From contig NC_086108.1 of assembly GCF_963921235.1 (NCBI RefSeq), forward strand, positions 11,036,001 to 11,100,000: a DNA stretch of 64,000 nucleotides, given 5' to 3'. The translations under genes and the position numbers were made by a program. Each line of letters opens with the position of its first letter. Positions within the stretch are counted from its first letter, which is position 1. Shown one piece after another: positions 25,581 to 55,611 of this stretch. The stretch is from Mobula hypostoma. Lineage: Eukaryota. The notes below the pieces were generated by a model. It did not search any database and had not been told where the DNA came from. It saw nothing but the letters and a program-made list of their open reading frames with translations.

Positions 25581-27799
25581 AGAGTGACACAACCAGATAG
25601 AGCGCTCTCCATCACACTCCTCGGAAACCTGCTAAAGTCTTTGGTGTGCTACAAGTCTGCTCTCACCAGGTAGCACAAGGGAGTCAGGCCACGACAGGAA
25701 TGACACACAGAAGATGTTTATTAAATTAAAGTTGAGGTAAAGGAGAGAAGTGTAACATGTGGTGTGGTAGTGCTGGCTGCAGAATGGGAGAGGGAATTTC
25801 TGCTTTAGGCTTAGTAAGGCATGTGAGCTGGCTGGGGAGAGCTTGAAACCAGCCCAGGAAAAGGTGAAAACCTGGTACGATCGGATGGCTAGGCACAGAG
25901 TGTTATGTCCACGGGACCAGGTTCTTGTCCTGCTGCCACTGCCTGGCTCTGTGTGACTACTTAGTAAAGACTCCAGATCGTAAGTATAAGATGCGTCTGA
26001 GCCACGTTAGCCTTTTAAAGCCCGGCAATGACCAGAAACACACTGTGTCCACACAGATTAACCCTGTGGCTGTACTGAAGTCTCCATCTGCAGGTGATGA
26101 GGGAAGTGATAGCGCCATTTCTAAAGAGATTCCGAAAGGCAGGTTGCCAAATTCCAAAATCCTGGCTGATTTGGACACTCACCTGTCTTAACTAAACCCC
26201 CCTGAGCACTCTGACATCATTCAGGTAATCAATCAGAATATTTCCCTCCTCTCTGATATTCCAACCAGTACTGATGTACTTCAGGATGATATTGATGTGG
26301 GTAATGTTGCCCATATCAAACAACATCCATACAGGGTAAACTCTGCTAACATTAGCTTCTGCATAAGGAAGTAAACTACATGTTGGAAGATGGCATGGTT
26401 GAACCCAGCTCATGTCCCTAGAGTTCCCCTGGTTTAGTACATTTTCCAGATGGTTTAGTACATTGTTGCACAGCCTTTCACAAGATAAACTCTATAACCA
26501 AGCCTGAATCCTACCCTCTACCTCATCTGGAAGATTGTATTGGCTCCGCATCCTTTGACACTAAGCTACGTCTCTTAGTGGGCTATTGGAAGACACCATC
26601 AACCCGGCAAGCCTGTGAGATTTCTGCTTTTGTGACTCCTGATGCCAGTACAAGGTCATGGCTTTTGGAATGAAGGATGGCCCAGCAACCTGGGTAAAGT
26701 TGTAGCCGGGGTAAAGTCTACCCTACTGGGGCTAAAATTGAGGTCACTGTGAACGTTGGTGTGCCAGAATCCCAGATGAGCCCCCATGGTGTTACAATCA
26801 TTATGTTACAACCTCGGCTCTCATGAAGTAACATAAAGAAGTCAGGCCACAACAAGAATTACACACAAAAGATATTTATTAAATGTAACCAGGTGACTAT
26901 TGAATATCACTTTTATTGTTTAAGTGCACTTATGTATTCGCCTTGGTAATGCTGAAATAGCTGCCTGTGCCTTTAAGAGAAAACGGTGATGTCATTTTGC
27001 ACGGGTGGAGTAGAACAAAGAGTTGCCGTGTTCTAGAAAGGACGACTTTTGAAAGCTTTTCCCAGGTTTGGTGCGGAAAGCTGAGTAATATTTGATAATA
27101 TCCATGTAAATTCATTTATACTTGTTTGTAATTCTAGAATATCAGTAATTTGACGTGTTTTACATGTGAATGCTTTAGATTTTCGCAAGTAAATTGATCA
27201 GTGCTGGATAGTGTGATTGCGAAGTTCCTTAATTGGCCTACTAGGTTAATATTTCTAGTAATTCAGCTACAAGGCAATATATTGTAAAAGTTTATTTGTC
27301 TTTCTTTATTGTTTCATGACCGAATGTGAATGTAACAGTGTAATGTGAATGTGTTAATCGCGGTTCACGTAGCGTGAGCGAGGAGAACTCATTTCAGAAT
27401 CTAGCCAACATGTGTTTGGAAGTTAAGCACGTGTGTGCCAAATATGAGTATATCTCTTAGTTGAGATGAGAGGTATTTATTCATTTTTTCGATGTTGTGT
27501 ATAAGGTACAAGATTGGTGGGATTCTAACTTTGTTTGTATTGTTTTTTCAGTTTTGCCACTACGGTATCGGTTTTGTATATTGTGTTTTAGTTATTTTCA
27601 TACTGCATACGTAACAAGGGTGTGGTCTGAAGTTAAACAGAGATTGTAATAGCGGGAACTGTTCTTTAAAAATTTATTTTGTCGTTTTTATCTTGATACC
27701 CTCTTTCTGCATTAAAACATCTGAAACAGATAAAAGAATTTAAGACCCGAAAAAGTATTTGTTGTCCTGCGTGTGTGTTTTTCCCCAGGCTACAAAATG

Positions 27800-27815
27800 T
27801 GGTACCAGGAGTGGG
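27800..27815 (+). promoter_or_regulatory. Primer-binding site of Gypsy A, complementary to tRNA-Leu(UAA)
   Basis: TGGTACCAGGAGTGGG, 5 nt after the 5' LTR, is the reverse complement of the vertebrate tRNA-Leu-TAA 3' end as I recall it. Confidence 0.8.
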
Positions 27816-30800
27816 ATAACTCCAAGCCAGTTTAGAGGATTTTTGATTTTTGTGTGCAGAACAATATACAATACATTATACGGCAGTGGTGAAGAACAAG
27901 ACAGGCGCGCCTGTGGGACGGAAGGAGAGCCGGTTATCGCACGAAGACTGTGGAAGGGTCTTGAGACCGGGCTGGGACATCGGGACTGACACCAGGATGT
28001 CGAACTGTGACGGTGATCCAGATCAACTGCGGCCGTGAAGTCATCGTGTTTTCTGCAAGAGACATCAGCAACCCCTTTCCCAGGCTTCTTGTAGAGACTT
28101 TAAAGACTTGAGTTTTCAAAATGTTACACACAGAGAATGAACAAACTGAACCTGATTTGAATGAACAAATTAGAGAGTCGCGTAGTAGGCATGAGGAAAC
28201 CATGGCAACTGTAGATAAATTAAGCAATGTATGTTCCAAGGGAAAGACACATTGCTCCATTTACAGGGGATGTTGAGAAAGATGGGAGGTCTGTTGATGA
28301 CTTTATTGAAGAACTGTAGAAGTCAGTCTGACCAGGATCAGTATGATTTTGTTATGTCAGTGCTCAGGGGTGCAGCATTAGAGGAAGCACGTATGAGCAG
28401 CGATGCTGAGGAAGATCAGGCTGATGATTTGTTCACCTATTTCAGGGAAGCTTTTAGTGACAATCATAGTACACCCCAGCTGTTGCATAGCTTCTAAAGT
28501 CACAAACAGCGTCAGGGTGAAGACATGAGAGAGTTTTCACATGCCCGTAGCCCAAGCTCTTAAACTGCTACTGAAGCATTCTCCTGATGCTTTGGCCAAT
28601 AAGAGGGTGGTGCCCAGGGATCAATTTGTAGAGGGCATCAGAGATCCTTCCCTTTAGAAGGAAGCTCCACCGATTTATGCGGAACAACCCCGAGTCCTCA
28701 GTGATAGAAGTGTGAGAGGAGGCTCGTCTGTGGTTTTCAGAAGAGTGTAAAGTCAAAGTAGCAGTAGTCAGGCACAGTGCTCAACCCTTAAAGCTCAGGG
28801 ATCTAAGTCTGTCACTCTAGAAGATGTCCTTAAAGTAGTTACAGAGCAGGGCAAAACCATTAGTGAGTTGACTCAAGCAATGAAAGATCTTGCCAGACAG
28901 AGAGGTGTTACACATGCAGTAGACCTAAGTTACAGCCTAGATTCACAAAGTTGCAAAGAATTGACCACAGAAGCAAAGTGCAAAAGATGTACAGCCTGAA
29001 TCCTCCAGCCCTCAGGTTGTTGTGAATTGGGCAATTCGGGGGAACCTCATAGACTCAGGTAATGCACAGCCATCCTGTGACCGTGTGCCGCAACATGCTG
29101 TAGGAACATGTCCTGATGTTGAGCTTAAGATATAAGGTGTCGCTGTCCATTGTTTGTTAGACACTGGCAGTCAAGTGAGCACCATGACTGAGCAGTTCTC
29201 TCGAGAACACTTGAATGGAGAGGGTGAGGATATGTTGTCCACTGCTTGTTGCCTTAGGTTAACAGCTACTAACGGTCTTGATATTCCTTACCTTGGGTAT
29301 CTGGAGCTAGAGGTTCAAGTAATGGGCATGAAGATTCCCAACTCTGACTTTCTAGTAGTCAGAGATCCTACTAGCACTGAACAACCTGTACCATGCATTG
29401 AAGGCATGAACATTATCAGCCAAAGTAGACAACTTGTCTACTCTGAATTTGACACAACCCTTGAAGGAAAGTTCGATTCTGATTGGAGAGATGTTTTCCA
29501 GAAAGTGCAGATGCGCGCTACTGGAAAGCAAGTCATAGTCCGAGTATAAAGAAAAGATACTGAGCACATACCTGTTGAATCTGTAGTTACCATTGTGGCT
29601 AGGAAGCCCCCTGGAGATGCTGGTACTGACCATAAGATGTTTCTTGAGCCACTGAACACCCGTCTACCGGGTGGTCTTGTAGCTATTCCCATGCCTATTG
29701 ACTCTTGTTGTCATACAATGCCAGTATAGGTTTTAAACCTCTCTCTCACCTAGGACCTGGCTGGGTATACTATCAAAGGTAGAATGCGTAGATAGTGATC
29801 AGCAATGTGCTGTAAGATTTCAGTGCATCTCAGCTGGCATTGAACAAGTGACAGCTGGTGTAAAGGAGGAGGGTAGTAACCCCAAGTTAAAGTAAATTCT
29901 AGCGAAATTCGACATTAGGGGTAGTGAAGAACAACAAGCTCAGAGAAGAGCTTTACTGACTAAGTACCTGGATATCTCTGCAGTCAAAGATGAAGACCTT
30001 GGGTACACTGACAAGGTCAAGCATGAATTTCATTTAATTTATGACGAGCCTGTTTCACAGCCATACCATCACATTCTGCCAAATCAATACAGTGAAGTGA
30101 AAAAGCACATCTCAAAGTTGTCAAAGAGGGGTGTGATTCAGGAGAGCAATAGTGCGTATGCCTCGCCAGTAGTGTTGGTACAGAAGGCTGATGGTAGCAT
30201 AAGACTGCGTAGGTTATCGCAGACTGAATCTTAAGACTAAAAAGGATGCATTCCCACTCCCACGTATTGATGAGAGTTTTGATGCTCTGCGGGGAGCGCA
30301 GTTTTTCTCAGTGAAAGATCTTGCGAGTGGTTATCGCCAAGTGGAGGTAGAGGAGCGTGATAGGCATAAGACTGCTATTTCGACCCCATTTGGTCTGTAT
30401 GAATATCTTTGCAGGCCATTTGGAGTCTGCAATGGGCTGGCAACTTTTCAAAGACTCATGCAGGCAACCATGAATGATTAAGATACACCAGTAAGTTATG
30501 CTGGTGTAGCTGGATGATATTTTGGTATATTCACCGACTTTCTAGAAACACTTGTAGAGGCTTGACACTGTGCTTCAGCATCTCAAAGAAATGGGTCTGA
30601 AGGTGAAATTGGAAAAATGTCATTTTCTGCAGTCAGAGGTAAAGTTCTTAGGACACCAGATATCAGCCAAGGGATAGACACAGATCCTAAGTAGGTCTCG
30701 GCTGTTCAGCAATGGCCAGTACCATCTACAGTCAAAGATTTAAGATCATTTCTTGGCTTTTGTAGTTATTATAGACCGTTCATTCAGGGATTCTCAAAGA

Positions 30801-31295
30801 TTGCATGTCCACTGCATGGTGTAGTGAATTTGTGTCTTAGTGCAGGGAGTTTTAGAAAATAAACCAGCTGTTAAAACAGTCTTGGACAGAAGAATGTCAA
30901 ACTGCCTTTGACTTGCTCAAAGAGAAACTGACCAGTTCACCTATCCCTGGCTTTGCTGATTTCACACAGCCTTTCATAGCGGAGACCGATGCAAGCAGTT
31001 GTGGACTAGGAGCTGTTTTATACCAGCAATGGAGAGACAAAGAGAGTTACTGAGTATGCAAGCTGATGATTGAGAAATGCTGAAAAGAATGATAGGATAT
31101 ATAGCAGCATGGAATTAGAGCTGCTTGCACTTAAGTGGGCTATAGTAGAGAAGTTTTGTGGTTACTTATTGGGTTCCAAATTCAAACTGATAATAATCTG
31201 TTATCCCACTTGAAAACTGCCACGTTGGGAGCAATTGAGCAGAGACGGATCTCATAGCTGTCAGTGTTTGACTTTGATGTTTAGTATCGTCCAGG

Positions 31296-32003
31296 TGTCA
31301 CGATTTTGTAACGTACCAGCAGTAAGAGATGACAGATTGAGTCAGGTTTTAATATTAAAACCACTATATTTATTTACATCTACTCAAAAATGTAGAAAAT
31401 TAAATAAACTACTTTCTTAAACAGAAGTTAATAGTGTTATGCGTCTAAAGCTCCCAAACAGTCAAACTTAGAACCCGTTCTTAACAGATCTTACTCAAGC
31501 ACAGTCTTAACGTGGCAGTTCAGTGAGTCCCAGTAATTCACGAAATAGGTGAGAGGAGAGACTTGTGGATTCACACTGCAGCGACGAGGCGATCATGACG
31601 AATTCCAAAGATTCCACAGCTAGCAAACGAAGAAACGGTTACCAAAGATCCCAGCCAAGGAATACTGTTCTGACGTCAACAAAAAGCAATTTCACAAAGT
31701 GACTGTCACAAAATCCACATCCATGGATCATACGAAGGACAGACACATCTCCACAATGCACAGTGTGCTGCTGATTAACCCAAATCTGTGGGTCTGGATA
31801 AGCATTAGACTTTACCCTTCTCGATTGTGAGCTGTTCCCGGATAGCTCGAAGCCTGCGATCTTCACTCGCTCTCTCTTTCCTTCGGCTCCCTTCTCAGCA
31901 AAACGTCCACATTTCTTTTATACCGTCGCCATACGTCATAAGGTAACGCTCACAGAAACGAAACTGTGGACTCAAAGTAAAACAAAACTGTGGACGCGTA
32001 ACA
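31296..32003 (-). mobile_element. Solo LTR inserted in the RNase H/INT junction of Gypsy A
   Basis: TGTCACG...CGTAACA; TSD CAGG at 31292-31295 and 32004-32007; removing it restores YRPGRSNTVADVLSR. Confidence 0.92.
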
Positions 32004-33890
32004 CAGGTCGGAGCAATACTGTGGCTGATGTTCTCTCTAGGCAGCCATTTGCAGGGGAGACTGAGCCTGTCTCAGAGGGTGCTGAGTTTGACAGGTCTGT
32101 GGTGATTAGTAGTCTGATCATTTGCGGCCCTGCTCTTGACCTGGCACTGGTTACAGCTGGTCTTAAAGGCCGTAAGGTTAAGCAAATTCGAGCTCCTGAA
32201 GCTGATACTAGTGATGTAAGTGGGCTGATGCAGGGAAACACCCCAACCTTCCCGGGTTATTCAACTGGGGATTTGCACGCTTTTCAGCAACAAGACCCTG
32301 TGTTAAGTGTCTTCAGAAACTTATGGGACTGAAAAGTAAAGTTGAATGGCAAGCAACATAGAGCTCTGCCTAAACTGGTTTTGTCTCTGTTAAAGCACTG
32401 GGACAAGATCAGGGAGCGTAAGGGGTTACTGTAACATGTAATTGATGAGAAGCACGGTGAGTGTTACCAGCTTCTGCTGCCTACCTGCTTCAGTAAAGCG
32501 TTATGGTTGGTACATGACTATGGGCCTTCACGGCATAGGGCATACTTTGCACTTGTTGAGAAGCAGATGTTTTTGGGTGGGCATGCACGAGGATGGGGTA
32601 CAGTGGATCAAAAATTGTCCACCTTGTGTTTTAACTAAAATGCCACCCCCTAAGATCCATCCTCCGCCCCCCCCCCACCCCATAAAATCATTTCATGCTT
32701 CTAGGCTGCTGGAAGTTGTTGCTGTAGATTTCACTGTGCTTGAGCTGGCAGCTGATGAACATGAAAATGCCTTAGTAGTCACAGACGTTTTTACAAAATT
32801 TACCCAAGCATTCCCTACTTGGGATCAAAAGGCAGATACCACAGCAAAGGTGCTCTTGAGGGAATGGTTCATGAAGTACGGTGTTCCTGAGAGGTTGCAT
32901 TCTGACCAGGGCCGCAACTTTGGAAGTGAGGTCATAACTGAGCTTTGCAAACTGTATGGGGTAAAGAAAAGTCATACTACACCCCATCATCCTGCTGGCA
33001 ATGCTCAGTGTGAGCGTCCCAACAGGACGATGCGTGATTTGTTGCGTACGTTGCCTCTGGAAAAGAAACGCAGGTGGCCAGAGCATCTACCCGAGTTAGT
33101 GTATGTGACGCCTCATGCAACCGCCAGATATTCCCCTTATTACCCACTGTTTGGTGTGGATCCCCGCTTGCCAGTGGATGCTCTGCTGGGGCGAGAACAG
33201 CCTGTGAACAGGAATTGTGACGGGTTAGCCACACACCAGAAACGACTGAGTGATGCCCATGCCAGAGTGAAAGAGTACTCTGAGCAGAAGGCTGCAGAAC
33301 ACATTGCCTCACAGGAGGATAAAATTCATTGTCCCCAGATTGACGTAAATGCACTGGTTTACCTCAGGAATAGGCTATTAGGGTGTAATAAGGCCCAGGA
33401 TGCTTGGAAATCAGCTGTCTACAGGGTGGTGGAGGTGCTAGACAACACATACCCTGTAGAACCTTTGGAGGGAGGGCTGATCAAGAGGGTGAACAGGGTA
33501 GACATCAGGCCCTGAGAGACCCTTCCCACCCCAGCTCCTCAGAGGAGACTGCAAACTCCTGTAATTCAGGGTAGTCCTTCCCTGGGACATGAATCAGATT
33601 CTGAGGATTCAGAGAATGGTGTGATATTGGGAGAAGATGTGTCAGAACAGGGTGTACACTAGCCTTGACAACATAACTTCTGGAACTGAGACCACAGCGC
33701 CTGTGACAGCTGATACAGGGTCAGATGTTGGTCGTCTTCCTGTTGCAGCACCCCGCAGGAGTAAAAGAGTAAATGCTGGACGGCATTCTAACCCACATCA
33801 GGAACCAAGGTCAGTCCTAGATGTGGCCTCCAGTGTCACAGATACTGGCCAGTCTAAGTTCAGTTCTATTCAGAGAAGTGGTTAAAGAGG

Positions 33891-36800
33891 TGTGGTAAAC
33901 CATGTATATATATTGTAACTGGGTTACCTGTCTGGACACACCCCTCTGCTGACTGCCCCTGTGGCTCCTCCCACAGAGTCCTGTATAAAGGTGTTCGCCT
34001 TGCCCCTCCCCCTCAGTCCGGGGGCAGACACTCACTGTGGAGGTCGTATTGTACAGCGAATAAAAGCCTTTCAGTATTTTACCAAGCCTCAGTCTTTTGA
34101 ATTTATTGAAGGTGCTTCAATTTTATTCGCTGTACATCTTAAAGCATGGAACATGCACTGAGACCAGACAAATTAGACCTGGATCTGCAGACACCTGAAG
34201 CTGGAAATGCTTTCGATCTCTAGCTGGCTTGCTTCAAAGCGTATCTAGAGGAGATTAAAGCGACCGACCCCGTAGCGAAGTGCAGAGTTCTACTCTCCAG
34301 GGTCAGTCCACGGGTCTATTCGCTGATCAGAGACCAGCCGAGCTATGATGTCGCGATGAGCACCCTCAAAAGACAATACCTGTGGCCGATAAACGCTGTC
34401 TATGCTCGGCACCGATTAGCGACTCGGCACCAGCAGTCTGGGGAATCGAGTGCTAAGTTTGTCCAGACACTACAGACACTCGCGCGAGCCTGCAATTGCC
34501 AGGAGCTGACGGCAGTGCAGCACGCAGAGCTCCTAGTGAGGGATGCCTTCGTCACGGGGACCAGGTCAGTGTACGTGCGCCAGCGGCTGTTGGAAAAAGC
34601 CGATCTTACTTTAAGTTCGGCAATAGAGCTGGCCAACACGCTGGAGGCCGCTGTGCATAACTCCGAGGCTCTCCAGGCACGCGATCCCCCAATGACCTCA
34701 TGGGCGCTGCAGACCCCGCAACCCGCCGGCAAATCGACCTCGGCTGCCGCCAGTTGCAAGACCCCGCAACCCGCCGGCGAATTGACCTCGGCTGCTGCCA
34801 GTCGCGAGTCCGCGAAGTGCTACTTCTGCGGACTGGAGAAGACCCCCCGGAAACGCTGCCCGGCCCGACAAGCTACCTGCTCCAGCTGCGGAAAGAAGGG
34901 CCACTTCGCCAAGGCCTGAAAGTCAAAACCGCGAGCGGGATCGAGCAGCGCCGCATGCGAGACATGGGGGTCGCCATCTTCCTTGCACACTGCCACCACG
35001 TGCGAGACATGGGGGCAGTCATCTTGGTCAGCGCCACCTCCTACCGCCTACGACCAACGGGTGCTCACGGGGCGCCCCACCACGCCAGACCAAGACAGCG
35101 ACCCAACCCTGGCGTCTGTGACCCTCGACCAAAGCGCACACCACCAGCTCGCAAGGTCAATGATGGACATCCTGGTGGAGGGGCACAGGACAAGCTGCCT
35201 GTTTGACACAGGCAGCACGGAGAGTTTTATCCACCCGGCCACGGTGCAGCATTGTGGACTCATGATACGGCCGGTAAGTCAGAGGGTTGCCATGGCTTCT
35301 GGGTCGCATACAACAGACATCCGGGGGGGTTGTGTAGCGACACTAGTGGTGCAGGGCACAGAATATCGAGACTTTACGTTACTAGTCTTGCCTCAACTGT
35401 GTGCCCCTGTGCTGTTGGGGCTCGACTTCCAGAGCCACCTGAAAAGCGTGACAATGAAGTATGATGGGACCCTCCCGCCAATTACTGTCATAAATCACCA
35501 GTTTTGTAGGGACACGTCACATACCCCGCTACTGACCACACACACATGCCGACCTGCACATCCCACCCAACACCATGCCAACTGCCACACTACCGATGCC
35601 ATTTGCAGCCTCTCCACCCTCAGGATCCCTTCCCCACCGCTGTTCGCCAACCTGACCCCCGACTGTAAACCCGTGACAACTAAAAGCAGGAGGTACAGCG
35701 CGGGGGACAGAGCTTTCATTAAGTCGGAGGTGCAGCGGCTGCTCAGGGAGGGGGTCATTGAGGGAAGCACAAGTCCTTGGAGGGCACAGGTGGTGGTTGT
35801 TTGGAACGGGGAGAAGAATAGGATGGTCGTGGACTATAGCCAAACCAATAGGTTCACGCAGCTCGGTGCGTACCCTCTACCCCGCATCGTGGATATGGCC
35901 AATCAGATAGCACAGTACAAGGTGTACGCGACCATAGACCTAAAATCCACTTACCATCAGCTCCCCATCCACCGGGAGGACCGCCCTTACACCGCCTTCG
36001 AGGCGGACGGCAGGCTTTATCAATTCCTGCGCATCCCCTTCGGTGTCACGAGTGGTGTATCTGTCTTCCAGAGGGCGATGGACCGGATGGTGGACCAGTG
36101 CCAACTGAAGCAACGTTCCCATATCTGGATAACATCACCATCTGCAGTCACGACCGGCAGGATCACGACAACAACCTCCAAAAATTTCTCCAAGTGGCCA
36201 AAGCTTTCAATCTCACCTATAACAAGGACAAGTGTGTGTTCAGAACCACCGGACTTGCTATCCTTGGGTGTGTCATGGAGAACGGAGTCATTGGCCCTGA
36301 CCCCGACCGTATGTGCCCCCTGTTGGAACTCCCTCTTCCCAATACCCTCAGAGCCCTCAAAAGGTGCCTGGGCTTCTTTTCATATTACGCCCAATGGGTC
36401 TCTAACTACGCAGACAAGGCCCGCCCCCTGGTTAAGTCCACCACATTCCCCCTCTCTGCCGAGGCCCACGCGGCCTTCAGCCGCATAAAAGGGGACATTG
36501 CCAAAGCAGCAATGCATGCGGTGGATGAGGCCATTCCCTTCCAAGTAGAGAGTGACGCCTCCGACTTTGCGCTGGCTGCTACCCTCAACCAGGCAGGAGA
36601 CCAGTGGCGTTCTTCTCCCGTACCCTTCAAGGCCCTGAACTTCAGCGCTCCGTGGTGGAGAAAGAGGCCCAGGCCATAGTGGAAGCTATTAGGCACTGGA
36701 GGCACTATCTCGCCGGCAAAAGGTTCACCCTGCTAACTGACCAGCGCTCAGTCGCATTCACGTTTAGTAACCAACAGCGGGGCAAAATGAAAAACGATAA

Positions 36801-38360
36801 AATTCTAAGGTGGAGAATCAAACTCTCCACCTACAACTATGACATCATGTACAGGCCTGGGAAGCTCAACAAGCCCTCCGATGCCCTATCCCGGGGAACA
36901 TGCACCAGCGCGCAGATCGACCTGCTATACGCCCTACATGTAGACCTTTGCCACCCGGGGGTCACCCGGCTTTTCCACTTCGTGAAAGCCCGGAACCTGC
37001 CTTACTCCCTTGAGGAGATCAGGATGATGACCAGGGACTGCCAAGTCTGCGCAGAGTGCAAACCGCACTTCTACCGACCCGAAAAGGCACCACTCATCAA
37101 GGCCACCCGCCCCTTTGAGCAACTGAGTGTTGACTTTAAGGGCCCCCTTCCCTCCACCGACCGCAATGTGTACTTTCTTAATGTTATCGACTAGTACTCG
37201 CAGTTCCCCTTCTCCATCCTCTACTCCGATACCACTACCACTTCAGTTATAAAAGCCCTGCACAAGCTCTTCACTCTGTTCGGATACCCATGCTATATCC
37301 ACAGTGACAGAGGGTCCTCGTTTATGAGTGACGAGCTGTGCCAATACCTGCTGGCTCGGGGTATTGCAACTAGTAGGACCACGAGCTATAATCCCTGGGG
37401 GGAATGGACAGGTGGAGAAGGAGAATGCCACGGTATGGAAAGCCACACACTTAGCCCTCAGGTCAAAGGGACTGCCGGTCTCCCGCTGGCAGGAGGTCCT
37501 TCCCGAGGCACTCCACTCCATCCGCTCCCTGTTATGCACAGCCACCAATGCCACCCCTCATGAGCGGCTCTTTTCTTTTCCCAGAAAACCGACCACTGGA
37601 ACCACCCTACCAACTTGGCTGACGTCCCCGGGGCCAGTGCTGCTTCGGAAACATGTGAAGAGCCATAAATACTCCCCGATGGTCGAGAGGGTTCACTTAC
37701 TTCATGCGAACCCCCAGTATGCCTACGTGGTTTTACCTGATGGGCGGGAGGACACGGTCTCCATCCGCGACCTGGCGCCTGCAGGAGCTCCAGGCCCCTA
37801 CCCTGAACAATCCGTGGTGACTATAGACCCTGTACCCACTGATGTATGTACCCACGAGACACCGTGCACCCCAAACCCTATACAGACACCACACGACACT
37901 CCCATACTGGGCGCGACGCACACGCCCATTAGCAACGCCTAACGTGCTGACACCTCAAGTCAGGCCGGAGCCAGCACAACCGCCGTCGCTGATGCAATCA
38001 CCACCGGTGCTACGTAGATCACAGTGACAGACTAGACCGCCTGATAGACTTGACCTGTAAATATACTTGTTTTAAATATTGTCAGTCACTTCACCCTGCT
38101 GGACTCTTTTTTTAAAAAAAGGAGGGGTGAATGTGGTAAACCATGTATATATGTTGTAACTGGGTTGCCTGTCTGGACACACCCCTCTGCTGACTGCCCC
38201 TGTGGCTCCTCCCACAGAGTCCTGTATAAAGGTGTTCGCCTTGCCCCTCCCCCTCAGTCCGGGGACAGACACTCACCGTGGAGGTCGTATTGTACAGCGA
38301 ATAAAAGCTTTTCAGTATTTTACCAAACCTCAGTCTTTTGGAGTTATTGAAGGTGCTTCA
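33891..38360 (+). mobile_element. Gypsy B: young full-length LTR retrotransposon (Mag-like gag with two zinc knuckles)
   Basis: 229-bp LTRs at 33891-34119 and 38132-38360 with about 8 differences by eye; 5-bp TSD AGAGG; PPT AAAAAAAGGAGGGG. Confidence 0.97.
34146..37942 (+). pseudogene. Single gag-pol ORF of Gypsy B with a few stops and frameshifts
   Basis: ATG at 34146; CYFC..C and CSSC..GH knuckles; LFDTGSTESF protease; YPLPRI and YLDN RT; ESDAS RNase H; CHPG..CQVC and HSDRGSSF integrase. Confidence 0.92.
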
Positions 38361-40066
38361 AGAGGTTAAAAGTACTTTTGCAGTGAGTGAGTATTTGAGG
38401 ACGCTTACTGGTATGCAGGGGAGAATGTAACCAGGTGACCGCTGAATACCATTTTTTATTGTTCAAGTGCACTTACGTATTCGCCTTGGTAATGCTGAAA
38501 TAGCTGGCTGTGCCTTTAAGAGAAAACGGTGATGCCATTTTGCATGGGTGGAGTAGAACGAAGAGATGCCGTGTTCAAGAAAGGACGACGTTCGAATGCT
38601 TTTCCCAGGTTTGGTTAGGAAAGGTAAATAATATCAGATAATATCCATGTAAATTCATTTATACTTGTTTGTAAATCTAGAATATCAGTAATTTGATGTG
38701 TTTTACATGTAGATGCTTTAGATTTTCATGAGTAAATTGATCAACACTGGATAGCGTGATTGCGAAGTTCCTTAATTTGCCCACAAGGTTAGTATTTTTA
38801 GTAATTCAACTACAAGGCAATATATTGTAAAAGTTTATTTGTCTTTCTTTATTGTTTCATGACTGAATGTGAATGTGTTAATCTCGGTTCACGTAGCGTG
38901 AGCGAGAAGAACTCATTTCAGGGTCTAGCCAACATGTGTTTGGAAGTTAAGCACGTGTGTGCCAAATATGAGTATATCTCTTAGTTGAGATGAGATGTAT
39001 TTATTCATATTTTCGATGTTGTGTATAAGGTACAAGGTTGGTGGGATTCTAACTTTGTTTGTATTGTTTTTTCAGTTTTGCCACTACCATATCGGTTTTG
39101 TATATTGTGTTTTAGTTATTTTCATACTGCATACGTAACAAGGGTGTGGTCTGAAGTTAAACAGAGGTTGTAATAGCGGGAACTGTTTTTTAAAAATTTA
39201 TTTTGTCGTTTTTATTTTGATACCCTCTTTCTGCAATAAAACATCTGAAACAGATAAATGAATTTAAGACCCGAAAAAGTATTTGTTGTCCTGTGTGTGT
39301 ATTTTTCCCCAGGCTACATAAAGTAAAGTTGAGGTAAAGGGGAAAAGGGTGTTGTGTGGTTTGGTAGAGCTGGCTGCAGAATGGGGGACAGAGACTGTAC
39401 GTAGGAGAGACCTTGTCTTTAAGCAGCCCCCAGTGGATGCTGGCAACGGAAAAGTAATTGCAGATATGATGTCCCAGGGAACTGCAACACTGTTGCAAGA
39501 GAAAACACAGGCCAGGAAATGTACAAGGCAGAGTAGGTGACAGAAGCTTCTGAGATACTGAAACCACCCTGTCTGGCACCAACAATCACTACACAGTCAA
39601 AGTCACTCAGATCACATTTCTTCCCCATTCGGTCTGAACAGCAACTGAACCTCCTCAAATTCCCAATGAAGTAGAGTCTCAGCCATTCAGCCATGCCTCC
39701 TAGTGATTGCATTGATGTGTTGGTCGCAAGATATTGAGGCCCAGGAACTTGGAGCTGCTCACTCCTTCCACTACTGACGCCTCGATGAGGACTAGTGTGT
39801 GTTCTCCTGATTTCCCTACAATCAGTTCTTTGGTCTAACTGACATTGAGTGTGAAGCGGTCATTGTAACAGCACTCAACTAACTTACCTTTCTCACTCCT
39901 ATTTTCCTCATCATCACTGTCTGAACAGTGGTTGTCTAGGCACAGGTGATAGGTGTAAGAGAGAGCAGAGTAGCAGGCTAAGCACACATTCCTGAGGTGC
40001 ACTTGTGCTGATTGTCAGGGAGAAAGAAGGGTTAATACTGATTTGCAATGACTGTGATCAGTCCAT

Positions 40067-45724: not shown

Positions 45725-47597
45725 ATCATCATCTGTCTATACTGATGGCAGTTAGGGCAGCAATGAACGTCCTCCATCTCTGGTGATGTTCAGGGATTCC
45801 TTCATCATGTCAGTAGCTTCCTCTCGGTTTTCACTACTGTCAGTCTTGCAAGTCCCAGGTGGAGACTCTGGAATACCATTGTACTCAGATGTAGAACGAT
45901 TCTTCGTAAACAACACACATCAAAGTTGCTGGTGAACGCAGCAGGCCAGGCAGCATCTCTAGGAAGAGGTACAGTCGATGTTTCAGGCCGAGACCCTTCG
46001 TCAGGACTAACTGAAGGAAGAGTTAGTAAGAGATTTTAAAGTGGGAGGGGGAGATCCAAAATGATAGGAGATGACAGGAGGGAGCCAAGAGCTGGACAGG
46101 TGATTGGCAAAAGGGATACGAGAGGATCATGGGACTGGAGGTCTGGGAAGAAAGACAAGGGTGGGGGAAACCCAGAGGATGGGCAAGGCGTATAGTCAGA
46201 GGGACAGAGGGAGAAAAAGGAGAGTGAGAGAAGGAGAGTGAGAGAAAGAGTGTGTGTCTAAAAATATTAACGGATGGGGTACGAGGGGGAAGGTGGGGCA
46301 TTAGCGGAAGTTAGAGAAGTCGATGTTCATGCCATCAGGTTGGAGGCTACCCAGACGGAATATAAGGTGTTGTTCCTCCAACCTGAGTGTGGCTTCATCT
46401 TTACAGTAGAGGAGGCCGTGGATAGACATGTCAGAATGGGAATGGGATGTGGAATTAAAATGTGTGGCCACTGGGAGATCCTGCTTTCTCTGGCGGACAG
46501 AGTGTAGGTGTTCAGCAAAGCGGTCTCCCAGTCTGCGTCGGGTCTCGCCAATATATAGAAGGCCACATCGGGAGCACTGGACGCAGTCTATCACCCCAGC
46601 CGACTCACAGGTGAAGTGTTGCCTCACCTGGAAGGACTGTTTGGGGCCCTGAATGGTGGTAAGGGAGGAAGTGTAAGGGCATGTGTAGCACTTGTTCCGC
46701 TTACACGGATAAGTGCCAGGAGGGAGATCAGTGGGGAGGGATGGGGGGGGATATAAATGGACAAGGGAGTCGCGTAGGGAGCGATCCCTGCGGACAGCAG
46801 AGAGGTGGGGGAGGGAAAGATGTGCTTAGTGGTGGGATCCCGTTGGAGGTGGCGGAAGTTATGGAGAGTAATATGTTGGACCCGGAGGCTGGTGGGGTGG
46901 TAGGTGAGGACCAGGGGAACCCTATTCCTAGTGGGTGGCGGGAGGATGGAGTGAGAGCAGATGTGTGTGAAATGGAGGAGATGCGTTTGAGAGCAGAGTT
47001 GATAGTGGAGGAAGGGAAGCCCCTTTCTTTAAAAAAGGAGGACATCTCCCTCATCCTGGAATGAAAAGCCTCATCCTGAGAGCAGATGCAGCAGAGACGG
47101 AGGAATTGCGAGAAGGAGCTGGCATTTTTGCAAGAGACAGGGTGAGAAGAGGAATAGTCCAGATAGCTGTGAGAGTCAGTGGGCTTATAGTAGACATCAG
47201 TGGATAAGCTGTCTCCAGAGACAGAGACAGAAAGATCTAGAAAGGGGAGGGGGGTGTCGGAAATGGACCAGGTAAACTTGAGGGCAGGATGAAAGTTGGA
47301 GGCAATGTTAATAAATTCAACGAGCTCAGCATGCGTGCAGGAAGCAGCGCCAATGCAGATTCTTTGTTGCTGTTTCCAGAACAATTTTGGGTTGTTAGCC
47401 CTGAATTGAACCCCCGAACCTGGAGGATCATTGAACCACTCTTAGTCTGGCCTCTACCGTTTGATCTATTTGGCATGGGTGACTCGACCATGATCCAAAG
47501 GATAAAACCTTGACTCCAGCCAACGTAGCTCTCTGGGTCATTGAGGCACACAAGCCTCCAAACCCTATGACAAGGCTGTGGACCTCTTGGAGGTGAC
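45725..47597 (-). mobile_element. Non-autonomous RTE-derived element split by a PLE; related 5' copy at 63912-64000
   Basis: TSD TAC(A/G)TTTATT at 45715-45724 and 47598-47607; (GAT)n tail; RTE-like 5' region. Confidence 0.65.
45908..47357 (-). mobile_element. 5'-truncated Penelope-like element (RT C-terminus, GIY-YIG endonuclease, pLTR)
   Basis: FHPALKFTW, YYKPTDSHSYL, CSRCGLLYIGETRRRLGDRFAEH; TSD GATTCTT(C/T)GT at 45898-45907 and 47358-47367. Confidence 0.92.
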
Positions 47598-48570: not shown

Positions 48571-50650
48571 TAATGTTGAAGGTCATGTGTTGAAACAAGT
48601 GAAACTACTTCTCAAGTTCAAAGGCATGTTTTAATGCCTGCATAAAGCTGAGGATCCACAACATGACGTACACCTGAGCAACAGTGTGTCAAATGTACAT
48701 GCACCAAGTTCTGCTGCAAAGACAGCAGCTTCTGTTCCTAAAACTCTCTCAGCATGCGTTAAAATGGAGGCTAATTTAGCTGCATTGATCTCACAGCAGT
48801 AATTATTGAAGGACAAACTTGCGCTGGAAGAGCAAGAGGAGCAGCTACAAAGAAGGAAGAAATTGCTGTACAGATGGCCAGTGTGAGGGGTGTACGAGTG
48901 CTCCAACAGGAGAGTCCTATGGTGTGAGTTTTTTTAATGATAAGAGAAAGCCCAACACATGCAATGTCACCGTTGAACTAATTTTTCCGCAAATGTCTGT
49001 GAAACGTAAGTTAGATCTCCAGGGGGTCGTTCAGGATGTTCACTCACAGTCTGCACTAAGGAAGCATTCTGAACCTATGTCATAGCCAACGGCTCAAGGT
49101 GCTCATGGGGGCATTCACTAATATTCTTGTTTAGATGATACTGTTGGAAAAATGAAGTAACAACCTTACTGGTAGAACAGCAATGCGTTGCATCTCTGCC
49201 TAAAAGGAAGATTCAAATTTTTGATGGCAATCCATTGCAATATCATGCATTCGTAAGGGCTTTTAAGAATAGTGTTGAAGGCAAGACTGACAACTATGGT
49301 GACTGGCTCTATTTCCTTGACTGGAGGGCACCCTAAAGAACTTGTCAGACGTTGCCAGCGTGTTGACCCTAAGGAAGGATACCTAAAGGCCAAGGCTTTA
49401 CTACAGGCAACACACACAAAATGCTGGTGGAACACAGCAGGCCAGGCAGCATCTATAGGAAGAGGTACAGTCGACGTTTCAGGTTGAGACCCTTTGTCAG
49501 GACTAACCGAAAGAAGAGATATTAAGAGATTTGAAAGTGGGAGGAGGAGGCGCTACTTCCTGCACGCATGCTGAGCTCGTTGACTTCATTAACTTTGTCT
49601 CCAACTTTCACCCTGCCCTCAAGTTTACCTGGTCCATTTCCGACACCTCCCTCCCCTTTCTTGATCTTTCTGTCTCTACCTCTGTAGACAGCTTATCTAC
49701 TAATATATACTATAAGCCTACGGACTGTCACAGCTACCTGGACTATTCCTCTTCCCACCCTATCTCTTGCAAAAATGCCATCCCCTTCTTGCAATTCCTT
49801 TGTCTCCGCCACATCTGCTCTCAGGATGAGGCTTTTCATTCCAGGACGAGGGAGATGTCTTCTTTTTTTAAAGAAAGGGGCTTCCCTTCCTCCACCATCA
49901 ACTCTGCTCTCAAACGCATCTCCTCCATTTCACACACATCTGCTGTCACTCCATCCTCCCGCCACCCCACTAGAAATAGGGTTCCCCTTGTCCTTACCTA
50001 CCACTCCACCAGCCTCCGGGTCCAACATATTATTCTCCGTAACTTCTGCCACCTCCAACAGGATCCCACCACTAAGCACATCTTTCCCTGCCCCCCCCCG
50101 CTTTCCACAGGGATCACTCCCTATGTGACTCCCTTGTCCATTCGTCCCCCCCATCCCTTCCCACCAATCTCCCTCCCAGCACTTACCCTTGTAAGTGGAA
50201 CAAGTGCTACACATGCCCTTACACTTCCTCCCTCACCACCAATCAGGGCCCCAGACAGTCCTTCCAGGTGAGGCAACACTTCACCTGTGAGTCGGCTGGG
50301 GTGATATACTGCGTCCAGTGCTCCCGATGTGGCCTTCTATATATTGGCGAGACCCGACGCAGACTGGGAGACCGCTTTGCTGAACACCTACGCTCTGTCC
50401 ACCAGAGAAAGCAGGATCTCCCAGTGGCCCATATTTTAATTCCACATCTCATTCCCATTCTGACATGTCTATCCACGGCCTCCTCTACTGTAAAGATGAA
50501 GCTACACTCAGGTTGGAGGAACAACACCTTATATTCCGTCTGGGTAGCCTCCAACCTGATGGCATGAACATTGACTTCTCTAATTTCCGTTAATACCCCT
50601 CCTCCCCTTCGTACCCCATCCATTATTCCCTTATTTATCTATTTATTTAT

Positions 50651-53600
50651 CTTCCTTTTTCAATCTTTTTACTAATTTCAAAATATAGAAACAAAACATA
50701 GCAATAATACAAATAGTAGGAGATATATTGTTACACTTAAAAAAATTAATTGCAAAACCAAGTAGTGTAAGTTAACAAAGCTCCCAATCATGTAGAACTA
50801 ACCATGGATAATACAAAGCAAAAAAAAACTGGAAAAAAAAATCATGAAAAAGAAAAAAAAACAAAACAAAAAAAAAGCAAACCCCATCCCCAAAGAAAAA
50901 CAAAATTAATCAACTAAACTAAAAGACTTGGGCAAAACGAACAACTTAAAAATGGAAAAGAAGAAAACCTTAGTGTCGACGACTCCATTCCCCTCCAACA
51001 ACAGTACAGAGAGATAAAACAAGTTTGGAAATGATCAAATTACATCAAATGAAAATGCTGAATGAATAGCCTCCAAGTTTTTTCAAACTTAATGGAAGGG
51101 TCATAAACTGCACTTCTAATTTTCTCCAAATTCAAACACACCATAGTTTGTGAAAACCAATGAAATACAGTAGGAGGGTTAATCTCTTTCCAATTCAACA
51201 AAATGGACCTTCTAGCTATTAAAGTAAGAAATGCAATCATCCTTCGTGATGAAGAGGTTAAATTATTTAAGTCTATCATTGGTAGTCCAAAGATAGCAGT
51301 AATTGGATGAGGTTGTAAGTCTATATTTAGGACCGTTGAAATAATATCAAAAATATCTTTCCAATATTTCTCCAACAAGGGACATGACCAAAACATGTGG
51401 GTTAAAGAAGCTATCTCGGAATGACATCTGTCACATATTGGATTAATATAAGAGTAATAACGAGATAGTTTATCTTTGGACATGTGAGCCCTGTACACTA
51501 CTTTAAACTGTATCAACCTATGCTTAGCACATACAGAGGATGAATTCACCAACTGAAGAATTTTTTCCCATTTTTCAGTCGGTATATTAATCTCAAGTTC
51601 TCTTTCCCACTCAGCTTTAATTTTATTAGAAGCATCAAGACATAAATTCATAATTATATTATATATAATTGCTACTACACTTTTCTGAGAGAGATTTAAA
51701 TCTAAGATTTTTTCCAAAGTGTCCATTGGATATGGGTGTGGAAAATTAGGGGAGACAGTAATTAAAAAGTTTCTAATCTGTAGATATCTAAAAAAGTGAG
51801 ATCTGGGTAAGTTATATTTATTAGAGAGTTGATCAAAAGACATAAAACAATTATCCAAAAATAAATCGCGAAAAGATATTATACCTTTGGTTCTCTAATC
51901 AAAGTAAGCTTGATCCATCGTGGAAGGTTGAAAAAGAAAATTTGATGTAATGGGACTTGCTAGAATAAATTGATTAAACCAAAAAAATCTTCTGAATTGA
52001 AACCATATACGTAAAGTATGCTTAACTATTGGGTTGTTCATTTGTTTATATGATTTAAAAGAAGTAAAAGGAAGTAAAGTTCCTAAAATCGAACCCAAGG
52101 AAAACACTTGTAATGAATTAGATTCAAGATTTACCCAATGAGGGTTTAAAGATGCGTCCAAATCTTGTAACCAAAATTTTAAATATCGAATATTAATTGC
52201 CCAATAATAGAATCTAAAATTCGGGAGGGCGGGCCCTCCCTCCTTTTTAGATTTCTGTAGATACCTTTTACCTAACCTAGGATTTTTATTCTGCCAAATA
52301 TATGAGGAAATTTTTGAACCTACGTTATCAAAAAAAGATTTTGGGGTAAGAATTGGAACCAATTGGAATATATACAAAAATTTGGGCAAAATGATCATCT
52401 TAATAGCATTAATCCGACCAATCAAAGACAAAGAGATTGGGGACCATTTGTTAAATAAAAGTTTAATCTGATCAATTAAAGGTAAAAAATTAGCTTTAAA
52501 TAAATCTTTATATTTTTTCGTAATTGTTATACCTAAATATATAAATGAATCAGTAACCAATTTAAATGGTAAACGTCCATAAATAGGTACATGCTTATTT
52601 AAAGGGAATAATTCACTCTTACTAAGATTCAATTTGTAACCAGAGAAGTTACTAAATTGAGCTAACGGATCTAGAATAGCAGGAACTGACTTCTCCAGGT
52701 TAGAGGTGTATAACAACAAATCATCTGCATATAATGATAATTTATGTATTTCGTTTCCACGGGTAATCCCAACAATATTTGGTGAGTCACGAATAGCAAT
52801 TGCTAAAGGTTCAAGAGCAATATTAAATAGTAAAGGACTAAGAGGGCAACCTTGCCTAGTACCACAAAAAAGACGAGAAAAAGGAGATCTATAATTATTT
52901 GTACAAACCGAGGCTACTGGGGAGTAATATAACAATTTAATCCAAGATATAAATGTCAAATTAAAATTAAATTTCTCAAGAACATTAAATAAATAAGGCC
53001 ATTCAACTCTGTCAAAGGCTTTCTCAGCATCTAATGAGATAATACATTCCGGGGTAGTAAATGAGGGGGTGTAAACAATATTCATTAACCTCCTAATATT
53101 AAAGGATGAATAGCGCTTTTTAATAAATCCGGTTTGATCCATAGAAATAATTTGAGGTAACACCTTCTCCAGTCTAGTTGCTAGAATTTTTGAAAAAATT
53201 TTAGAGTCTACATTCAGAAGAGATATCGGTTTGTATGATGCACAATCAGTAGGATCTTTATTCTTTTTAAGAATCAAGGAAATAGAGGTTTCATAAAACG
53301 ATTGTGGTAATTTACCTAAACTGATTGCTTCCTTGAATATTCTAGACAACTTAGAAGAAATAATGGAGGAAAAAAATTTTAAAAATTCCACTGTAAACCC
53401 ATCCGGACCGGGTGCTTTACCGGAATTCAATGATGAGATTGCAGTTATTATTTCTTCCTCTGAAATGGAAGTTTCTAATGATAGGCAATCTTCGGGTGAT
53501 AGTTTCGGAAAACTCAATTTATTTAAAAAATCATGCATGAAATTAGAATCATGAGGAAAATCAGAGTGATATAAAGAGGTATAAAATTCTTGAAAGGTTT

Positions 53601-54518
53601 GGTTTATCCCAACATGATCAACTGTGAAAGTATCATCCTGTTTGCGAATCTTAGTAATTTGACGTTTAACCGAATCAAATTTCAATTGTTCAGCCAGTAA
53701 TTTACCCGATTTATCGCTATGAATATAAAAATCACTTCTAGTTCTCATTAATTGATTTTCCATCGAGGATGTTAATAATAAGCTATGCTCCAATTGGAGT
53801 TCAACTCTGTGTTTGTACAGCTCCTTACTGGGAGAAATAGCATATTTTTTATCGACTTCTTTAATTTTATCAACCAACAGAAGTATTTCATTGTTAATAC
53901 GTCTTTTCAAACCAGCCGAATAGGAAATAATCTGACCACGGATATAAGCTTTAAAGGCGTCCCAAACAGTTCCATTGGAAACTTCTTCCATAGTATTAGT
54001 TGAAAAGAAGAAATCAATCTGCTCCTTTATAAATTTGACAAAGTCCTGATCTTGAAGCAAAATAGGGTTAAATTGCCATTGTCTGCTAGTACAAGAGGTG
54101 TCCATTAACTTGATGGAAAGTTTCATTGGAGCATGATCTGAAATAGCAATAATGTCATAATTACAATCAACTACATATGGAATCAAACGAGAGTCAATCA
54201 GGAAATATTCAATTCGGGAAAAAGAACGATGTACATGTGAAAAAAAGGAGAATTCCTTATCATTTGGATGTAGAAATCTCCAAATTTCTGAGATCCCAGA
54301 ATCCAACATAAAAGAGTCAATAATAGTAGCCGACTTATTCAGTAAAGCCGGACTACCTATGGATCTGTCCAACATGGGATTCAAACATAAATTAAAATCA
54401 CCGCCCATTATCAACATATACTCGTTTAAATTAGGAAAGGAAGTGAGTAAGTGTTTAAAAAATTCAGGATAATCCACATTCGGAGCGTAAACATTAACCA
54501 TAGCGACCTTTTTATTAT
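50651..54518 (-). mobile_element. Young 5'-truncated L1-clade LINE
   Basis: Probable 20-bp TSD TTATTTATCTATTTATTTAT at 50631-50650 and 54519-54538; 3' end AGTAAAAAGATTGAAAAAGG. Confidence 0.93.
51040..54501 (-). pseudogene. L1 ORF2 (partial APE endonuclease, RT, zinc knuckle) with one in-frame TAG at 51895-51897
   Basis: NVYAPN, GGDFN, SDHAP, SLDAEKAFDRVEW, GTRQGCPLSPLLF, YADD, CDRC..THMFWSC; the 868-aa and 272-aa ORFs share a frame. Confidence 0.95.
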
Positions 54519-55611
54519 TTATTTATCTATTTATTTATTTATTTATTTATTTACCCACCTCTTTCTTTCTCTCTCTTTTTTCTCCTTCTGTTCCTCTCAC
54601 TATACCTTCCACTGATGCTCCCCTCCCCCTTTCTTTCTCCCTAGGCCTCCCGTCCCATGATTCTCTCCCTTCTCCAGCCTGGTATCCCTTTTGCCAATCA
54701 ATTTTCCAGTTCTTAGATCCATCCCTCCCCCTCCTGTCTTCTCCTATCATTTTGGATCTCCCCCTCCCCCTCCCACTTTCAAATCTCTTACTATCTCTTC
54801 TTTCAGTTAGTCCTGATGAAGGGTCTCGACCCGAAACCTCGACTGTACCTCTTCCTAGAGATGCTGCCTGGCCTGCTGCGTTCCACCAGCATTTTGTGTG
54901 TGTTGCTTGAATTTCAAGTATCTGCAGATTTCCTCGTGTTTGCGGCTTTACTATGGGAACAGTTTGGTGATGAACAGTAATTCTTAACATTTCACAAGCA
55001 TCTCAATAGAGGAATGTAAGCATTTTGCGCAATGTGGCCTCTAGAAGGCTGAAGCTGAAGAATAACACATGGGTGTCATTATCTTCTTCATCTCCCTTCT
55101 GTTAGTTCCAGGTTTGGTTTTAGCTTTGCTTCTCACCATGGCCACAATATTGGCAAAGCTGCTTTCTTCAGCCTTAGAATGAAATTTTGGCTTAGTTTTG
55201 TTTACACTCTTGCTTACTGCAGGTGATGTAGTGTCCTGTATATATCCAAACACCGGGTGTGTAGCAATCTCTACTTGTCTTTTGTTACAATGAATGTCAT
55301 GCAGATTGAAGAGGATGTGGACACGGTAACACGTATATTCCATCACATCTTGTCTTGGATCTATTTGAGTAATACAATGGCTTACATTCTTAGATTTAAG
55401 AACCTGCTCCTGTTTCTTAGTTGGAAGAGGAATCAATTGAATATTGTTTTTATGCAGTCTGAGTCGGATGAAGAACAGCAAGTGTATTCTTTGGGGAAAG
55501 AGACTGAGAAGGCTAAATTGGCCGAGATTATCTCTTACTGGTGGATCTCTGTAAGGCTGAAATAGAAATTGTTGTTTTTTTGTCAAAGAAAGAGAAATCC
55601 AGATGAATTCT

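Follow-up and report, generated by a model that had tools for sequence, protein, structure and literature searches.

Mirrored changes in the LTR and the primer-binding site point to self-priming in a chromodomain-less Gypsy lineage of animals

Results

Structure of the Gypsy B locus

The window (the whole stretch of Mobula hypostoma DNA that was analysed, 64,000 nt) contains two nested LTR retrotransposons. The outer one, Gypsy A (26884-39318), has LTRs of about 900 nt (26884-27794 and 38426-39318), a 4-bp target site duplication (TSD), TAAA, and an ordinary primer site beginning with TGG (27800-27817). The inner one, Gypsy B, is inserted just upstream of the Gypsy A polypurine tract (about 50 nt). 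The window also carries an inverted duplication of about 1 kb (46287-47351 against 49549-50607, 91-95% complementarity) and, on the minus strand, a remnant of a non-LTR retrotransposon ORF2 with RT and zf-RVT domains (51040-54522). The parts of Gypsy B are:

33891-38360, plus strand: Gypsy B element, inside Gypsy A
33886-33890 and 38361-38365: 5-bp TSD, AGAGG, flanking Gypsy B
33891-34119, plus strand: 5' LTR, TG...CA, 229 nt, bounded by the TSD
33984-33989, plus strand: putative TATA-like box, TATAAA, replaced by AATAAA in the genome's older subfamilies
34013-34018, plus strand: putative Inr-like motif, TCAGTC
34050-34065, plus strand: LTR arm, the putative self-primer, whose 3' terminus is predicted at 34065 or 1 nt earlier
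34059-34064, plus strand: AATAAA inside the LTR arm
34066-34116, plus strand: inner stem GCC...GGT, initiated by RCC and stacked on the arm/PBS duplex; RCC is conserved in the clade and the remainder is variable
34121-34136, plus strand: primer-binding site (PBS) position, reverse-complementary to the arm, with its first base 2 nt past the LTR-terminal CA
34146-37942, plus strand: gag-pol, comprising gag with two CCHC arrays, PR, RT, RNase H and IN, lacking a chromodomain
38120-38131, plus strand: polypurine tract, followed by AA ahead of the 3' LTR
38132-38360, plus strand: 3' LTR, with the arm but lacking its PBS partner; AATAAA predicted to lie outside any stable stem

Gypsy B is a Ty3/gypsy LTR retrotransposon, with TG..CA LTRs, TSD, polypurine tract and domains in the order PR-RT-RH-IN. 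Its two LTRs are 96.5% identical, and the gag-pol frame of the window copy is disrupted by premature stops and frameshifts; in intact relatives gag-pol is a single ORF of about 1200 aa, and the RNase H acidic motifs are found in proteins of the lineage.

Complementarity between the LTR arm and the PBS position

The 16/16 complement reported in the initial annotation is exact: 34121-34136 is the perfect reverse complement of LTR positions 34050-34065, and the next pair would be T/T. A single A (34120) separates the PBS from the LTR end at 34119, an end that the TSD AGAGG, bounding the element, fixes independently of the arm/PBS motif. In the 200 nt ahead of gag the longest perfect inverted repeat is this 16-nt one, against a mean of 6.65 and a maximum of 9 in 20 shuffles. 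The fold of the 5' LTR with the PBS has a z-score of -4.2 to -5.2 against 200 dinucleotide shuffles, none of which was equally good, and the 3' LTR with its flank reaches only -1.0. The inner stem of the initial annotation does fold in the window copy, but two of its nine pairs are broken, uncompensated, in about half of 114 genome copies. An Rfam scan of 33850-34250 gave no match.

Arm and PBS vary together among the copies of the genome

A first search gave 1233 candidate places in the genome, of which 40 were scored. In all, 120 genome copies were retrieved, 80 of them the top entries of one search, 10 further entries of that search and 30 additional ones from another; with the window copy they make 121. 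The 5' arm was obtained in 119 and was in register in 114 (L195, L199, L204, L206 and L254 were dropped as out of register). TSDs match in 80 of the 85 copies having both ends, which places the LTR end independently of the motif. Directly after the LTR stands ATTT in 109 of the 119 copies and TGG in none, which bears out the reported absence of a tRNA-type PBS. Two of the retrieved copies (L203 and L213, G000:C50:78905737-78914919) share their orientation at a spacing of about 4.2 kb and are possibly a tandem sharing one LTR.

With arm positions numbered back from the arm 3' end, four subfamily substitutions in the LTR arm (-8, -9, -11 and -15) are mirrored in the PBS. The copy counts below, given as 5' arm against PBS alleles with table rows separated by a semicolon, represent these four substitution events and not independent copies:

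-8, G/T: 44, 1; 1, 49; concordant in 93 of 95 two-allele copies
-11, A/T: 41, 2; 4, 65; concordant in 106 of 112
-15, G/T: 29, 10; 1, 67; concordant in 96 of 107
-9, C/T: 68, 7; 10, 23; concordant in 91 of 108

Where both LTRs of a copy agree, the PBS deviates in 0/65 copies at -8, 2/84 at -11 and 5/81 at -15. Position -15 lags: in 10 copies the LTR has already changed and the PBS still shows the former letter. Position -16 is paired in only 23 of 114 copies; the perfect 16/16 match therefore belongs to the young subfamily, and the common core is 15 nt.

At least five arm variants occur in this one genome, each mirrored by its PBS. This is difficult to reconcile with priming by a fragment of a host tRNA or by some other small RNA to which the LTR match would be incidental, an explanation that we consider extremely unlikely even though half-tRNA priming is known in copia lineages (parts of PMC6317226) and the host tRNA set was scanned only in part (of about 248,000 candidates, 63 were scored in the Rfam tRNA search, which is not exhaustive; the 26 loci checked were all tRNA-Lys). 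The families of other genomes, described below, speak against it as well, since 17 of them have different PBS letters, each matching its own LTR only.

The inner stem of the same fold served as an internal control. Its substitutions at +5 (58/114) and +11 (56/114) are similar in frequency, and the compensating partner was never seen. If the primer is copied into the PBS, a mirrored arm beside an uncompensated inner stem is the expected pattern; the same contrast could come from stronger selection on the outer duplex, and the mirrored arm/PBS changes could result from selection by itself. It is extremely improbable that hairpin correction or gene conversion acting on the DNA of inserted copies maintains the match with no role in replication. 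Such correction would fit position -8, where the PBS equals the 5' arm in 5 of 7 copies with discordant LTRs, but at -11, -15 and -9 taken together the split is reversed (3 to 8), correction is absent from the inner stem, and the fixed geometry and missing tRNA site would be left unexplained.

The 5' and 3' arms differ at 15 copy-positions despite mostly intact TSDs, differences that a simple self-priming model does not predict. Six insertions with an intact TSD (L184, L209, L252, L265, L273 and L276) have 5' and 3' LTRs that disagree in their subfamily letters in U3 and in the arm; in L184, L252 and L273 the region past the arm is identical. Discordant LTRs within an intact TSD suggest intermolecular strand transfer or cDNA-mediated conversion.

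The pairing recurs with different letters in other families

Among the matches listed, relatives of Gypsy B were found in rays, sharks, insects, crustaceans, corals, a sea cucumber, a fluke and a nematode, the closest named proteins being from rays (81-90% over the RT piece); a search of IMG/VR gave no relative. A profile built from 41 relatives gave 80 metagenome loci, of which the 39 with a match starting near the gag start were tested and, one being too short (L046), 38 were examined. A perfect arm/PBS pair of 11-18 nt, with differing letters, is present upstream of gag in 32 of these 38 loci, relatives at a protein identity of 50-70%, and in each of the 32 it is longer than the best of 20 shuffles of the same locus (shuffle means 6-7.6). 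In L071, L084 and L094 the pairing contains a mismatch or extends over 9 nt, in L045 and the too-short L046 the pair is present across a circularly permuted contig, and L034 (mis-anchored) and L047 (cut at the arm) are uninformative. In the LTRs of L045, L046, L074 and L084, pyrimidine runs that end in AG and strongly resemble splice acceptors occur within U3 or at the arm, and no spliced form was seen; in L074 the LTR end and the first 12 nt of the PBS are duplicated in the leader, which could reflect an assembly artefact or slippage during strand transfer.

The geometry of the pairing is constant, with the arm ...TAAA/RCC opposite CA-A-TTT, and in the 14 loci with both LTRs the PBS starts at LTR end +2. 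The arm 3' end is AAA in 20/20 rows, followed by a purine in 20, C in 19 and C in 17. Among 17 non-redundant families, positions -5 to -9 are paired in 17/17, -10 and -11 in 16, -12 and -13 in 15, -14 and -15 in 12 and -16 in 9, against a cross-family pairing expectation of 0.37; the register was picked to maximise pairing, and LTR ends are independently fixed in the 14 metagenome loci and in the own-genome copies. A family's own arm and PBS pair at 7.6 of 8 positions versus 4.1 for cross-family combinations, and pairing over -4 to -11 is complete in 0/272 cross pairs. In 14/17 families the arm is immediately followed by a stem of 4 bp or longer, which exceeds shuffles individually in 5.

Within multi-copy families, L039 (1 of 7 copies) carries a rare private G-to-T transversion at -7 in both LTRs and in the PBS, L037 has both LTRs changed with the old letter still in the PBS, and a PBS change at -14 has no mirror in 4/7 copies.

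Since arm and PBS change letter for letter in the elements of many animals, the group likely primes with its own RNA. For the candidate self-priming put forward in the initial annotation, good support comes from the covariation, seen both inside families and from one family to another, and from the fixed PBS geometry.

Poly(A) signal and transcription start

Some retroviral leader hairpins hide the 5' poly(A) signal, and the same function had been proposed for this fold. At the 5' LTR, and only there, the fold of Gypsy B is predicted to cover AATAAA, but this is not general: the canonical hexamer lies in the arm in 10/20 rows, is downstream and unpaired in 3 and is absent in 7 (A[AT]TAAA is also found in the PBS complement of two further rows), and the invariant junction is TAAA/RCC, not AATAAA. 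Masking is therefore secondary, and in roughly half of the families hiding the 5' AATAAA is likely a useful by-product. We regard as very unlikely the stronger alternative, in which the duplex does nothing else and another RNA primes at another site: it would account for the hexamers in the arms and PBS complements and for a stable fold restricted to the 5' LTR, but in L031, L032 and L044 the canonical hexamer is downstream and unpaired with the PBS, masking does not need a partner fixed at LTR end +2, no TGG site remains for a tRNA, and the arm is mirrored while the inner stem is uncompensated.

In 20/20 rows 3-4 A close the arm and 3-4 T open the PBS, and the arm is present in both LTRs. These features would also suit a primer made without an RNase H cut from the 3' LTR arm, which cleavage or trimming of the tail would leave as the 3' terminus of either the genomic RNA or a short transcript. 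Poly(A) processing, however, needs a hexamer 10-30 nt upstream of the 3' end, and in the families examined none lies at that distance upstream of TAAA, the hexamer being inside or after the arm; we consider this route very unlikely.

A transcription start about 35 nt upstream of the arm, as previously proposed from the TATA-like box, was not borne out, a TATA box at -73 to -82 being present in only 3/17 families and the box of the window copy reading AATAAA in older subfamilies. A is found at -11 in 14/20 rows and G at -10 in 17/20, after a T-rich run, a combination that we take to be initiator-like. A start at -11 would yield a primer of 11 nt, the length of that of Tf1; as significant pairing reaches -13/-15, the sequences argue that the RNA extends further. 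Four RNA runs cover the LTR, as contigs that cannot show starts or levels, with no joint inside it. The pyrimidine run and AG at -11/-10 of many arms also raised the possibility of a splice-junction primer, which was rejected: pairing with the PBS spans the AG and continues upstream of it, and TG stands in its place in older subfamilies.

Phylogenetic placement

No chromodomain was detected in 20 full-length relatives (E <= 0.01), nor among the 120 matches listed. In an RT-RH tree the 24 rows of the lineage form one clade (100/100) with a long stem, separate from the chromodomain-bearing, Mag-type and Gmr1-type elements of the same genome; a second tree left out winA (a poor fragment), L350 and L108. 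The chromodomain references are elements of this genome, not the named Tf1 or sushi-ichi. Elements of the genome with the CGDYK motif are presumably of Mag type, and the Mag-type and Gmr1-type labels of tree rows were assigned in part by such motifs. The Mag-type elements have a TGG PBS and about 28% RT-RH identity to the lineage clade; the TGG primer site is likewise present in Gypsy A and the Gmr1-type controls.

The Mag-like affinity initially assigned to Gypsy B holds for the two CCHC arrays of gag, a trait of Mag and Micropia/Mdg3 (parts of PMC2577118), but not clearly for RT, where grouping with Mag has a support of 51 and carries a long-branch warning. The RT is not nested in the chromoviruses, whose rows form their own group, and a sister relation to them is not rejected (p-AU 0.267). 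Placed among the genome's own elements, the lineage is thus a separate deep clade with neither a Mag nor a chromovirus sister settled, and an origin of self-priming independent of Tf1/sushi is, on these two values, possible only.

Three chromodomain-bearing Gypsy elements of the same genome (L342, L345 and L350) also lack TGG after the 5' LTR, as expected for the sushi type; no long perfect self-complement was found in these decayed copies. No name for the clade was matched by motif searches of papers and supplements, including part of PMC6238403 and of PMC8556966, and an atlas search returned only generic gag clusters.

Discussion

To our knowledge, self-priming has been proven so far only in yeast Tf1. 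Based on the sequence comparisons and on the analogy with Tf1, the Gypsy B lineage very probably primes minus-strand DNA with its own LTR arm instead of a tRNA, the PBS being re-copied from the primer. Following the Tf1 model, the Gypsy B RNA would fold back and bring the arm onto the PBS, RT-RNase H would cut at or beside TAAA/RCC, and the freed 3'-OH of the arm would be extended through U5; the strong-stop DNA would then jump, using as R the short segment from the cut to the poly(A) site, and in every cycle the PBS would be rewritten when the primer, still attached, is copied during plus-strand synthesis. The 5' end of the primer would be either the transcript start or the product of a second trim.

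A broader reading, which we put forward tentatively and hold to be somewhat short of probable, is that in an animal-wide, chromodomain-less Gypsy clade self-priming evolved independently of Tf1/sushi, with an internal primer cut at the fixed TAAA/RCC from the element's own poly(A)-signal region, one duplex both silencing the 5' poly(A) signal and supplying the primer, and the PBS rewritten from the LTR in each cycle. If self-priming of the lineage is true, it would become a common route in animals, beyond the Tf1/sushi chromoviruses and the few plant lineages for which it has been predicted. Such elements would be independent of the tRNA supply and likely invisible to silencing by 3' tRNA fragments and to PBS-based annotation, and the TAAA/RCC junction offers a precise site for testing the cutting of an RNA/RNA duplex by RT-RNase H.

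The available parts of the literature tie self-priming to Tf1/sushi, Tcn1 and the plant TAR copia elements (PMC6317226, PMC3601003, PMC6238403, PMC6934838, PMC5445492). No self-priming of a chromodomain-less animal Gypsy clade is described in these parts (for PMC8556966, the supplements only); subscription journals, Repbase Reports and the primary Tf1/sushi papers lie outside this scope, and an earlier description is possible.

Comparison with known systems

Several known groups share part of these features. The Mag lineage (A, B and C clades), the unnamed mollusc clades MolGy1-16 and Cigr-1 (PMC6238403, in part) are, like Gypsy B, compact chromodomain-less animal Gypsy elements with two CCHC arrays, the arrays being a Mag trait (PMC2577118). 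Plant Tcn1 (gypsy) and TAR/Houba/Osr-1 (copia) are self-primers predicted from the same kind of evidence as that presented here; in portions of the same source (PMC6317226) the rule is an LTR complement of at least 10 nt starting 0-5 nt past the 5' LTR, and Gypsy B falls within it. Unlike Gypsy B, these elements belong to another superfamily or to the chromovirus branch, and their hosts are plants.

The closest parallel is with Tf1/Tf2 (Schizosaccharomyces pombe), Tj1, Tosmo1-3 and the Tf1/sushi chromoviruses, which like Gypsy B are Ty3/gypsy elements lacking a tRNA PBS. In Tf1 an 11-base primer is cut by RNase H (PMC7175516), the primer is copied into cDNA (PMC11042837) and the RNA adopts a pretzel structure (bioRxiv 2022.12.06.519325), further facts on the mechanism being given in PMC4600332 and PMC5341516 (all cited in part). 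Of the pretzel, the central duplex and the stem at +1 (at least 4 bp) have candidate counterparts in 14/17 families; for the third helix, leader-loop pairing was no better than the cross-family control in the 17 families. In both groups the PBS directly past the 5' LTR pairs with a stretch of the LTR, a helix begins right after the primer 3' end, and copying is expected to return the primer sequence to the PBS. In contrast to Tf1/sushi, the Gypsy B lineage has no chromodomain (0/20), two CCHC arrays and an RT clade of its own; its arm ends in an invariant TAAA, often a poly(A) signal, and its duplex is of 13-16 nt compared with the 11 of Tf1. The Tf1 primer consists of the 11 nt that begin its mRNA; in the Gypsy B lineage, where the pairing continues to -13/-15, the primer may be either such a 5' end or an internal segment.
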